NCBI GenBank assembly: GCA_963662715.1 | Contig: OY759724.1 | Coordinates: 1,500,001-1,532,000 of the forward strand | Length of the DNA: 32,000 nucleotides | Reading direction: 5' to 3' | Origin: Candidatus Omnitrophota bacterium | GTDB lineage: Bacteria > Omnitrophota > Gorgyraeia > Zapsychrales > JANLHA01 | Shown: positions 1,969-10,515 of the stretch, piece by piece | Position numbering within the stretch: position 1 is the stretch's first letter | Layout of the letters: each line of letters starts with the position of its first letter | Position numbers and translations under genes: made by a program | The notes under the pieces: model-generated | Database searches by the model: none | What the model saw: only the letters and a program-made list of their open reading frames with translations | Told to the model about the DNA's origin: nothing

Positions 1969-2049
1969 ATGATGAAGAAAAGGCCGTTTTTTTATGCAAC
2001 AATTTTAACAATTCTTTCTTTTTGTTTTGTTTTGCCCAAAGTAGACGCG
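1969..2049 (+). other. Sec-type signal peptide (27 aa, predicted cleavage after VDA)
   Basis: MMKKRPFFYATILTILSFCFVLPKVDA|EQ has a basic n-region, a hydrophobic h-region and an A-x-A-like site. An S/N/T-rich low-complexity linker follows, to about nt 2330. Confidence 0.7.

Positions 2050-10515: not shown

Follow-up and report, generated by a model that had tools for sequence, protein, structure and literature searches.

Polymorphic toxins that combine a signal peptide, an SpvB domain with an integrin-like beta-propeller, and RHS repeats are listed as the "TcdB/TcaC" trafficking class in Table 1 of Zhang 2012 (PMC3482391), and the passages of that paper on the class place it in many phyla, including Euryarchaeota. 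Related shells include the mosquito protein SGS1, which was solved by cryo-electron microscopy (PDB 8FJP; PMC9935623) and carries a carbohydrate-binding module and an ERGIC-53-like lectin that are inserted in the RHS repeats and lie outside the shell; SGS1 is believed to have been gained horizontally from bacterial endosymbionts (PMC9935623). Bacterial teneurin-like proteins are Sec-dependent YD-shell toxins, whose delivery machinery was stated by the authors to be an open question (Raoelijaona et al. 2026, Nat Commun 17:2753, PMC13018210). Here we analysed a stretch of 32,000 nt from a Candidatus Omnitrophota bacterium (GenBank assembly GCA_963662715.1, contig OY759724.1, positions 1,500,001 to 1,532,000 of the forward strand; "the window", to which all coordinates refer unless another locus is named). 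It contains one very large open reading frame (ORF), the main gene, which runs from the ATG at 1969 to the stop codon at 10513-10515 on the plus strand and encodes a main protein of 2848 aa. A ribosome-binding site (GGGGAG) is located 7 nt 5′ of the ATG, and a chance origin of an 8.5-kb open frame in DNA with 39% G+C is excluded, so that the ORF is real.

With a probability of roughly 70%, we regard the main protein as a Sec-exported, TcA-independent polymorphic cocoon toxin of the "TcdB/TcaC" class, most likely directed against neighbouring microbes, that would bind its target via lectin and FN3 modules borne on the shell. Its basic architecture was already catalogued in 2012 and is widespread; the noteworthy feature is the variable lectin/FN3 array in one shell loop, for which SGS1 is the structural precedent. 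The features of the main gene are given below. Domains were called with Pfam and NCBIfam, both on the whole protein and on segments of it.

1969..2049, plus strand: predicted signal peptide of the Sec/signal peptidase I (SPI) type (aa 1-27; predicted cleavage VDA/EQ), from sequence rules
2050..2394, plus strand: low-complexity linker rich in S, N, and T (aa 28-142), from composition
2401..2958, plus strand: SpvB / TcB N-terminal domain (aa ~145-330); PF03534 at aa 145-305, E=1.8e-28 in the whole protein and 4e-31 for the segment alone
3256..4665, plus strand: FG-GAP (integrin-like) beta-propeller region with TcdB_toxin_midN (aa ~430-899), from Pfam and the family profile
4666..6585, plus strand: RHS/YD shell, first part (aa 900-1539); RHS_repeat E=1e-30
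6586..8874, plus strand: insert of 763 aa in a shell loop (aa 1540-2302) with the order helix, lectin, FN3, FN3, lectin, FN3, from the alignment of relatives
6646..6750, plus strand: conserved amphipathic helix (aa 1560-1594) just before the first lectin domain, ending in AAYA with D as the next residue, from a motif
6751..7326, plus strand: domain X, copy 1 (aa 1595-1786), predicted concanavalin-A-like (L-type lectin) beta-sandwich, from an AlphaFold2 (AF2) model and Foldseek
7330..7953, plus strand: two tandem FN3 domains (aa 1788-1891 and 1892-1995); fn3 E=2e-29
7957..8532, plus strand: domain X, copy 2 (aa 1997-2188), 56% identical to copy 1
8536..8847, plus strand: third FN3 domain (aa 2190-2293), from an fn3 match
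8875..9528, plus strand: RHS/YD shell, second part (aa 2303-2520); RHS_repeat E=2.4e-12
9529..9867, plus strand: Rhs core with a predicted aspartyl autoprotease (D2602, D2629); TIGR03696
9868..10512, plus strand: putative toxin tip of 215 aa (aa 2634-2848) with an isoelectric point (pI) of 9.3; no known family

Judged by its sequence, the main protein has every defining feature of the "TcdB/TcaC" polymorphic toxins, i.e. a signal peptide, SpvB followed by the FG-GAP propeller, and RHS repeats with an Rhs core in front of a variable tip, together with a downstream immunity-like ORF and stand-alone tip cassettes. The SpvB region aligns with SpvB (6p0x) and with the N-termini of TcdB1 and YenB. 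For the segment aa 431-900, the models FG-GAP_3 (E=8e-16) and FG-GAP (E=5e-12) matched repeats across aa ~520-860, and TcdB_toxin_midN (PF12256) matched aa 786-899 with E=1.5e-11 and 44 bits, compared with a cut-off of 24.8. TcdB_toxin_midC (PF12255) had no match in the whole protein or in its segments. Neither a PAAR, a prePAAR, nor a VgrG-binding domain was found with Pfam in aa 1-144 or in the rest of the protein.

The initial annotation, made by a model from the sequence, had described one ORF with a signal peptide, an S/N/T-rich linker, SpvB, FG-GAP propeller, RHS shell, Rhs core, and tip, and had taken it for TcB- and TcC-like parts in a single chain. The Pfam and NCBIfam matches agree with this order of parts. 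Among the models that it had proposed for the protein, SpvB, TcdB_toxin_midN, FG-GAP, and RHS_repeat are present and TcdB_toxin_midC is missing; a PAAR or other trafficking domain in the N-terminal part, which it had named as counter-evidence, is absent from aa 1-144. Its list of domains was correct as far as it went, and omitted aa 1540-2302 (27% of the protein), the immunity gene, and the orphan-tip array, all of which are described below.

A family profile was built from the main protein and its ten best relatives. It matched the structures of TcdB2-TccC3 fusions with E=5e-87, which agrees with the proposed union of TcB-like and TcC-like parts. The alignment with TcdB2-TccC3 is in separate pieces, which extend over SpvB, the propeller, the terminal part of TcB, and the greater part of TcC; within TcdB2, residues 35-207, 603-789 (in the propeller), and 1327-1464 are aligned. 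The profile also matches TcdB1 and YenB with its N-terminal half, and TccC2 and YenC2 with its C-terminal half. The C-terminus of TcdB2 (residue ~1470) corresponds to aa 1335-1340, so that the last ~200 aa of the first shell part are equivalent to TcC, and the stretch after the insert, aa 2303-2632, aligns with TcC from residue ~206-245 to residue 689. Because of these two correspondences, the insert is placed ~200-240 aa inside the TcC-equivalent, and a location at the TcB/TcC junction was ruled out.

The N-terminus contains K3, K4, and R5, followed by a hydrophobic core of 16 residues and a predicted cut V-D-A/E after A27, with small residues at positions -3 and -1. The core is the sole 19-residue window of the whole protein with a Kyte-Doolittle hydropathy of at least 1.6. 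Inspection of the N-terminal sequence revealed no lipobox, and Pfam and hydropathy revealed no membrane or cell-wall anchor beyond the signal peptide. The signal peptide of the initial annotation is thus borne out by sequence rules and hydropathy, which were used in place of SignalP. The S/N/T-rich linker was likewise described correctly, as 25 S, 14 N, and 9 T are present in the 115 residues of aa 28-142 (42%). The linker has no meaningful Pfam match, and 27-102 aa are found at this position in the relatives.

At the other end of the protein, Rhs_assc_core (TIGR03696) matches aa 2553-2632 with E=1.4e-20, and residues 580-689 of YenC2 align with aa 2523-2632. The residues D2602, P2624, D2629, P2630, and G2632 are nearly invariant in the alignment of the main protein with its ten best relatives. 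Because P2624, D2629, and G2632 fit the motif PxxxxDxxG, which was described for TcC proteins (Song 2021), and because of the alignment with YenC2, autocleavage is predicted to occur after ...VDPSGN2633. The tip that would be released has a length of 215 aa and thus falls within the criterion of 201-400 aa for the hypervariable tips of TcC proteins (Song 2021). It has no match in Pfam, NCBIfam, or the PDB, and no relative among the retrieved related proteins and loci. An AF2 model from the single sequence had a predicted local distance difference test (pLDDT) score of 36 and was unusable.

The insert was defined by alignment with the ten best relatives, and profiles of its flanks were then placed on 120 relatives. 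It is situated between two conserved RHS blocks, which are joined by a loop of 13-30 aa in most of the family. In the ten closest relatives, 243-1143 aa are inserted at this site, and the modules differ: FN3 arrays, LamG_3, and beta modules of other kinds occur. Domain X accounts for two of the modules in the main protein, and the tested copies match no Pfam model. An AF2 model built from eight copies reached a pLDDT of 89 and a predicted template modelling (TM) score of 0.88. The best Foldseek matches in the PDB were legume lectins, ERGIC-53, and VIP36, with query TM scores of 0.6-0.67, a probability of 1.0, and sequence identities of 8-14%; glucanases and lyases of the concanavalin-A-like fold were among the lower matches. 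Two Cys are invariant in 8 of 8 aligned copies, a pair that would suit an extracytoplasmic domain. A profile search for domain X retrieved 2007 cluster representatives at E<=1e-3 and 509 at E<=1e-10, and many of these members are stand-alone proteins of ~200 aa, secreted proteins with multiple copies, or proteins that carry the domain directly after a signal peptide.

The first two FN3 domains are identical at 293 of 312 nt and at 99 of 104 aa, and this degree of identity marks a recent tandem duplication of 312 nt. The third FN3 domain shares 82 of 104 aa with the first. The helix in front of the first domain X has the motif W..F...GLF..(E)AYA(D/Q), which is found in nine fused relatives, and its maximum hydropathy is 1.46. 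The motif occurs at the same position in P0002-P0004, P0006, P0128, P0130, P0132, and P0134 (P numbers denote related proteins, L numbers related loci). The end of the helix, (E)AYA before (D/Q), resembles the end of a signal peptide and has the same spacing from domain X as true cleavage sites. A relic signal peptide left by a gene fusion was considered as an explanation and was weakened, since the motif is conserved and since, in P0129, the helix occurs in addition to a true signal peptide; the helix is more like a functional linker than like a relic.

A second insertion site was observed in P0012-P0018 just before the Rhs core, with ~215-250 extra residues and repeated GWN..P motifs. P0014 has a longer insert at this pre-core site, including a stretch that is probably behind its LamG_3 (PF13385) annotation. 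As two sites are in use, shell inserts are, as far as these alignments show, a general habit of the family.

Downstream of the main gene, the following features were found:

10547..10867, plus strand: putative cognate immunity gene (106 aa, pI 4.8), from its position
11412..12880, plus strand: orphan cassette 1, with an Rhs-core fragment and a different tip (11412-12494) and an immunity-like ORF of 124 aa (12506-12880); TIGR03696 E=2e-22
12996..13352, plus strand: extra immunity-like ORF; Imm27 PF15590 E=1.2e-5, below the Pfam cut-off
13793..14796, plus strand: orphan cassette 2, with an Rhs-core fragment and a short tip (13793-14422) and a membrane ORF of 125 aa (14419-14796); TIGR03696 E=6e-20
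14911..16506: insertion sequence (IS) element; DDE_Tnp_1_6, DUF772
16643..17712, plus strand: toxin-tip fragment severed from its core by an IS (16643-17335), plus an ORF of 108 aa, from tip matches
18961..19867, plus strand: possible tip fragment (169 aa) and a membrane ORF of 129 aa, a weak assignment from the position after an IS3 copy alone
22998..23516, plus strand: Imm11-family immunity gene without a toxin partner; PF07791 E=1.7e-14

The 106-aa ORF starts 31 nt past the stop codon of the toxin gene and has its own ribosome-binding site, AGAGAGGA. It is acidic, in contrast to the basic tip, has no family match in Pfam or NCBIfam, and is, from its position, the putative cognate immunity gene. 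Orphan cassette 1 is 92.8% identical to nt 9556-9777 of the main gene, and orphan cassette 2 is 90.5% identical over the same block of 222 nt. The homology of orphan 2 begins abruptly at nt ~9556 of the main gene, and past nt 9778, toward the cleavage motif, the identity between the main gene and the orphans drops to ~57%. The tips differ among the main gene, the orphans, and the relatives. For orphan 1, the tip has its counterpart in that of P0005, a protein from a metagenome-assembled genome (MAG) of Omnitrophota (E=5e-30), and the immunity ORF matches the ORF that directly follows P0005 (locus L004). The severed fragment at 16643-17335 matches the tips of P0003 (E=4e-47) and P0061 (E=2e-16), and the ORFs at 18961..19867 had no match to families or relatives. 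The locus of P0004 has the same plan, i.e. a main gene, a small ORF, and then at least six orphan/immunity pairs. With five IS elements in the window, the downstream region has the make-up of a typical Rhs tip array that is heavily invaded by IS elements. The immunity-like gene and the orphan-tip array, together with the lectin/FN3 insert, point to a polymorphic toxin system rather than a fragment of a Tc toxin.

Several further elements were observed in this region. Two IS3-family copies (17736-18968 and 21735-22967) are identical over 1233 bp and in direct orientation, each with an OrfA of 91 aa and an OrfB of 283 aa on the minus strand. Between them lie 2.8 kb that contain an Abi_alpha gene (20372-21091; PF14337 E=5e-21) as well as small membrane ORFs and the possible tip fragment, and the pair could represent a composite transposon or two recent insertions. 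A G+C-rich repeat of 94 nt is found at 13414-13507 and 23597-23690, downstream of the Imm27-like and Imm11-like ORFs; its two copies are 88% identical. It belongs to no Rfam family, and the whole window has no Rfam match. The repeat folds weakly better than shuffled sequences (z about -2.3 to -2.7, minus strand) and may be an element similar to repetitive extragenic palindromes or to miniature inverted-repeat transposable elements. A gene for an IS200/Y1 transposase is located at 106-534; genes for IS200-like Y1 transposases recur at 16 of the 81 related loci, where most lie downstream of the toxin gene and on its strand (e.g. L070 16276-17346 and L088 8323-8919). A promoter-like match, TTTACT-17 nt-TATAAT (10 of 12 positions), occurs at 9716-9744, 11701-11729, and 13926-13954, within the homology block that the main gene shares with the two orphans. 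As a consensus match, it could drive the immunity genes of the orphans; a promoter scan of the window yielded 56 sites, compared with 43.7 +/- 7.5 in shuffled sequences, which is near chance.

Relatives of the main protein are encoded at no fewer than 548 loci in GTDB, with one genome per species. The closest, with 34-44% identity, are from MAGs of Candidatus Omnitrophota and from MAGs labelled uncultured Planctomycetales, and others are from Nitrospirota, Desulfobacterota, Gammaproteobacteria, Anaerolineae, Verrucomicrobiota, and archaea. The window was scanned with Pfam for the main protein and ~37 other ORFs of at least 80 aa, mostly the non-overlapping ones. No TcA-, VgrG-, PAAR-, LXG-, or WXG-like gene and no type VI secretion system (T6SS) gene was found among the scanned ORFs, in accordance with the initial annotation, which had reported the window to lack TcA, VgrG/PAAR, and type VII secretion system genes. 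To search for partners, we clustered all flanking ORFs of at least 110 aa from 81 related loci against each other. Within 10 kb, none of the 81 loci has an ORF of TcA size (at least 2000 aa), six of the largest flank ORFs contained no TcA domain when scanned, and no conserved neighbour or delivery partner emerged across the loci. The recurrent groups were generic histidine kinases (22 of 81 loci) and the IS200-like genes (16 of 81); the rest were small. As raw counts, ATPases similar to GspE/PilB occur in 5 and pseudopilins in 3 of the 81 loci. In a few Omnitrophota loci, genes of a type II secretion system (T2SS) or a type IV pilus lie at a distance of up to 10 kb from the toxin gene (L040 22522-25684, L068 20599-23957, and L020 2579-3802); they encode, in all, a GspE/PilB-like ATPase, a GspF-like protein, and pseudopilins.

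As no TcA-sized gene and no conserved neighbour is present in the 81 loci, the absence of a partner appears as a trait of the class and not as a peculiarity of the present locus. The architecture and the missing partner pointed out in the initial annotation are not a novelty, because the architecture is that of the "TcdB/TcaC" class as tabulated in PMC3482391, relatives are numerous, and the missing partner is class-wide. Its remark that Sec export alone does not explain how the toxin reaches a target describes a real puzzle, which is a known property of known classes. It had also taken an exbD gene and NikR as hints at a diderm host. NikR is present (31441-31857, Pfam) and the hint stands, whereas exbD is a frameshifted remnant and not an intact gene: the ExbD/TolR homologue is split into two pieces (30765-31004 and 31015-31176) that match PF02472 only when joined (E=2e-10, nearly the whole profile), which makes it a pseudogene unless the frameshift is an error in sequencing. 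For the thioredoxin reductase TrxB, which is encoded nearby, the best named relative is from Candidatus Auribacterota of the Planctomycetes-Verrucomicrobia-Chlamydiae (PVC) group, with 63% identity. The ExbD remnant, the PVC-affine TrxB, and OEP and resistance-nodulation-division genes next to P0004 are hints at a diderm ancestry.

The profile search with domain X also revealed stand-alone genes for proteins of ~900-1050 aa (P0126, P0129, P0131, and P0156, plus the short fragment P0125), at the following positions:

L084, 10001-13147: P0126
L085, 2925-6050: P0131
L086, 974-4045: P0129
L088, 10001-12778: P0156

Their layout consists of an N-terminal signal peptide, domain X, usually FN3 (P0156 has no fn3 match), ~330 aa of RHS repeats, a core, and a tip, and a small ORF follows most of the genes. 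GCA_964477075.1 and GCA_030688425.1 are among the genomes that carry genes of this kind. The one in L088 lies 2.3 kb downstream of a fused gene that is complete, and over 1127 nt it is 84.5% identical at the nucleotide level to the C-terminal shell of that fused gene; it looks like a long orphan with its own export signal and binding module. In L084, no B-like gene is found within 10 kb of the stand-alone gene. No gene for a B-only partner was found among the 120 best relatives, several of whose loci are cut off within the insert by the end of the contig. Directly upstream of P0156, a gene for an outer-membrane beta-barrel protein of 284 aa (OMP_b-brl, weakly OpcA-like) was observed in two assemblies (L088 9040-9894 and L089 601-1455). 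The stand-alone modules might act in trans or might be recombination cassettes only.

Together, these results suggest the following mode of action. The chain would be exported via Sec, and the signal peptide would be cut after A27, as predicted by the sequence rules. SpvB, the FG-GAP propeller, and ~970 aa of RHS repeats are homologous to the respective parts of Tc toxins and would fold into a closed TcB-TcC-like cocoon with the propeller as a plug. The aspartyl protease of the Rhs core, with D2602, D2629, and the PxxxxDxxG motif, would cut after N2633 and free the basic 215-aa tip inside the shell. By analogy with SGS1, the two domains of predicted lectin fold and the three FN3 domains could be displayed on the exterior of the cocoon and bind glycans or proteins on the target surface, and thus might replace TcA in its role of receptor binding. 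The acidic 106-aa ORF would protect the producer. Tips are shared between genomes, and the homologous block of ~220 nt would allow tip swapping by recombination between the main gene and the orphan cassettes. Candidates for the exit from the cell are type II secretion, lysis, or vesicles, and for release, the gate of the propeller might open on contact. Neither the window nor the 81 related loci offer an explanation for the crossing of the outer membrane or the entry into the target.

Several points weigh against this interpretation. We found no study in the literature in which a member of the "TcdB/TcaC" class had been examined experimentally. The tip belongs to no known family and has no usable model, so that its role as a toxin is putative, and the signal peptide was assigned by rules. 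Glycoside hydrolases and lyases share the concanavalin-A-like fold, and a lectin is the likeliest role predicted for domain X, not the sole option. The exterior position proposed for the insert was derived by analogy, not by modelling the entire protein. IS elements are so numerous at the locus that it may be in decay, even though the main ORF is intact. Lastly, a TcA, T6SS, or T2SS could lie elsewhere in the genome, beyond the 32-kb window.

Three other explanations were weighed. The clear homology to TcdB2-TccC3, YenB, and YenC2 could mean that the protein serves as the BC cocoon in a true Tc (ABC) toxin, in which a TcA pentamer encoded elsewhere in the genome would dock on its propeller and deliver the tip into eukaryotic cells by injection; natural tcB-tcC fusion genes as well as orphan tcC genes, far from tcA, are known (Song 2021). 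However, P0093, P0106, and P0111, which are canonical TcB-like proteins and the only ones in the homologue list with PF12255, have no N-terminus resembling a signal peptide. Such an N-terminus is present in the main protein and, by a crude test, in 60 of 79 relatives with SpvB near the N-terminus, and PF12255 is undetected in the main protein. The lack of any ORF of at least 2000 aa near the 81 loci and of TcA domains in the six scanned flank ORFs, the immunity-like gene and orphan array, which point to antagonism between microbes, and the shell's own binding modules also speak against a Tc toxin, which we therefore regard as highly improbable. It is less improbable, and still quite unlikely, that the protein is mainly a surface adhesin or a teneurin-like device for cell-cell recognition, e.g. 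for the attachment of a small PVC-group parasite or predator to its host, with a secondary or vestigial tip. A quarter of the protein consists of lectin and FN3 modules, FN3 was recently duplicated, the closest relatives are from Omnitrophota MAGs, giant adhesion proteins have been reported in Omnitrophota, and teneurins and SGS1 are re-purposed shell toxins. Yet the protease residues of the Rhs core are intact, tips and immunity ORFs are exchanged among genomes, the orphan homology blocks have been kept at 91-93% identity, and no anchor is detectable past the signal peptide.

The stand-alone genes would also be compatible with a two-part system, in which a module of lectin, half shell, and toxin is exported alone and joins a B-like scaffold beyond the cytoplasm, the main gene being a fusion with a relic signal peptide at aa 1560-1594. 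The true signal peptides of these genes, the small ORFs downstream of most of them, and the equal spacing of cleavage site and internal AYA motif from domain X fit this idea, and ~330 aa of RHS repeats would seem too little for a closed cocoon. In contrast, P0129 has both signal peptide and helix motif, and the motif is conserved across the fused proteins; B-only proteins are missing from the 120 best relatives, the L088 gene resembles an orphan recombination cassette, and the insert site is off the TcB/TcC junction, ~200-240 aa inside the TcC-equivalent. Such a system is distinctly improbable. A broader proposal is tentative and, on balance, unlikely: the cocoon toxin of PVC/Omnitrophota bacteria would be self-targeting and modular at a level above that of known Rhs systems, and a unit of binding module, half shell, and toxin would also be exported separately via Sec, either swapping into the main gene or assembling in trans with a scaffold. 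If true, the cocoon would consist of two parts, work without TcA, and exchange its toxin and its choice of target as one unit.

For the preferred interpretation, a TcA-independent toxin of the "TcdB/TcaC" class, the question how a Sec-exported cocoon toxin gets out of a diderm cell and brings its cargo to a target without TcA, T6SS, or another injector is an acknowledged one, stated as open in 2026 for the sibling teneurin-like toxins (PMC13018210). The lectin-fold and FN3 modules in one shell loop, which vary among the relatives, are the only parts that could give target contact. If these modules set the target range, the proteins would be compact, re-targetable carriers of cargo, which little-known bacteria of the PVC group would likely use as a weapon or for attachment. 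Domain X, with ~2000 cluster representatives and tested copies outside Pfam models, is a sizeable family in its own right.

Compared with known systems, the locus agrees best with the "TcdB/TcaC" toxins as described in the respective passages of PMC3482391: signal peptide, SpvB, propeller, RHS repeats, and variable tip are shared, as are the downstream immunity gene, the stand-alone tip cassettes, and the wide occurrence across bacterial and archaeal phyla. The class is defined by comparative genomics only, and these passages are silent on a lectin/FN3 array in the shell, on domain X, and on stand-alone half-shell genes with a signal peptide of their own. The cocoons of Tc toxins (TcdB2-TccC3, 4O9X and 6H6E; YenB-YenC2, 4IGL) have the same order of parts, i.e. 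an SpvB-like N-terminus, propeller, RHS shell, Rhs core with aspartyl autoprotease, and a tip of 200-400 aa. They differ from the main protein, which is a single chain with a Sec signal peptide, no detectable PF12255, and an insert of 763 aa, and from its locus, which has an immunity-like gene and an orphan array and no TcA nearby. The C-like shell is also shorter in the main protein, with 327 aa after the insert versus ~450 aa in the matching part of TcC. Tc toxins are assembled in the cytoplasm. Release of the Yersinia Tc toxin is described as dependent on a type 10 (lysis) secretion system (PMC10847048), and, unlike the TcB of toxins released in this way, which has no Sec signal, the main protein has a predicted signal peptide.

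SGS1 resembles the main protein as a single-chain Rhs/YD cocoon that is closed by a propeller and has a lectin-type insert, and ERGIC-53 is both the protein to which the SGS1 lectin is likened and a top fold match of domain X. Unlike the main protein, SGS1 is a eukaryotic salivary protein with an inserted wedge and a second propeller, encloses predicted transmembrane helices, and has no immunity gene and no orphan array. The teneurin-like proteins also enclose a polymorphic toxin, come with immunity genes, and possess additional domains for adhesion. Their framework is the teneurin superfold (TIP/TTR, FN-plug, NHL propeller), in contrast to SpvB and FG-GAP propeller here; with Pfam, the NHL and TTR parts of that superfold were not found in the main protein. 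Gram-negative teneurin-like proteins are mostly lipoproteins (signal peptidase II type) and are described as rare, in contrast to the common class to which the main protein belongs. Teneurin-like chains in the PDB match it only at the C-terminal shell and core; the entries 9IFO and 9PT5 ("Teneurin-like protein") presumably belong to the study by Raoelijaona and co-workers. WapA of Bacillus subtilis and the T6SS Rhs effectors RhsA, Tse5, and Tse15 (7Q97, 8CP6, 8UY4) share with the present locus the RHS cocoon, the autoprotease, the toxin/immunity pair, and tip switching via orphan cassettes. WapA is wall-associated in a monoderm and contains neither SpvB nor a propeller. The T6SS Rhs effectors have PAAR or VgrG-binding N-termini and no signal peptide, and the main protein is the opposite on both counts.

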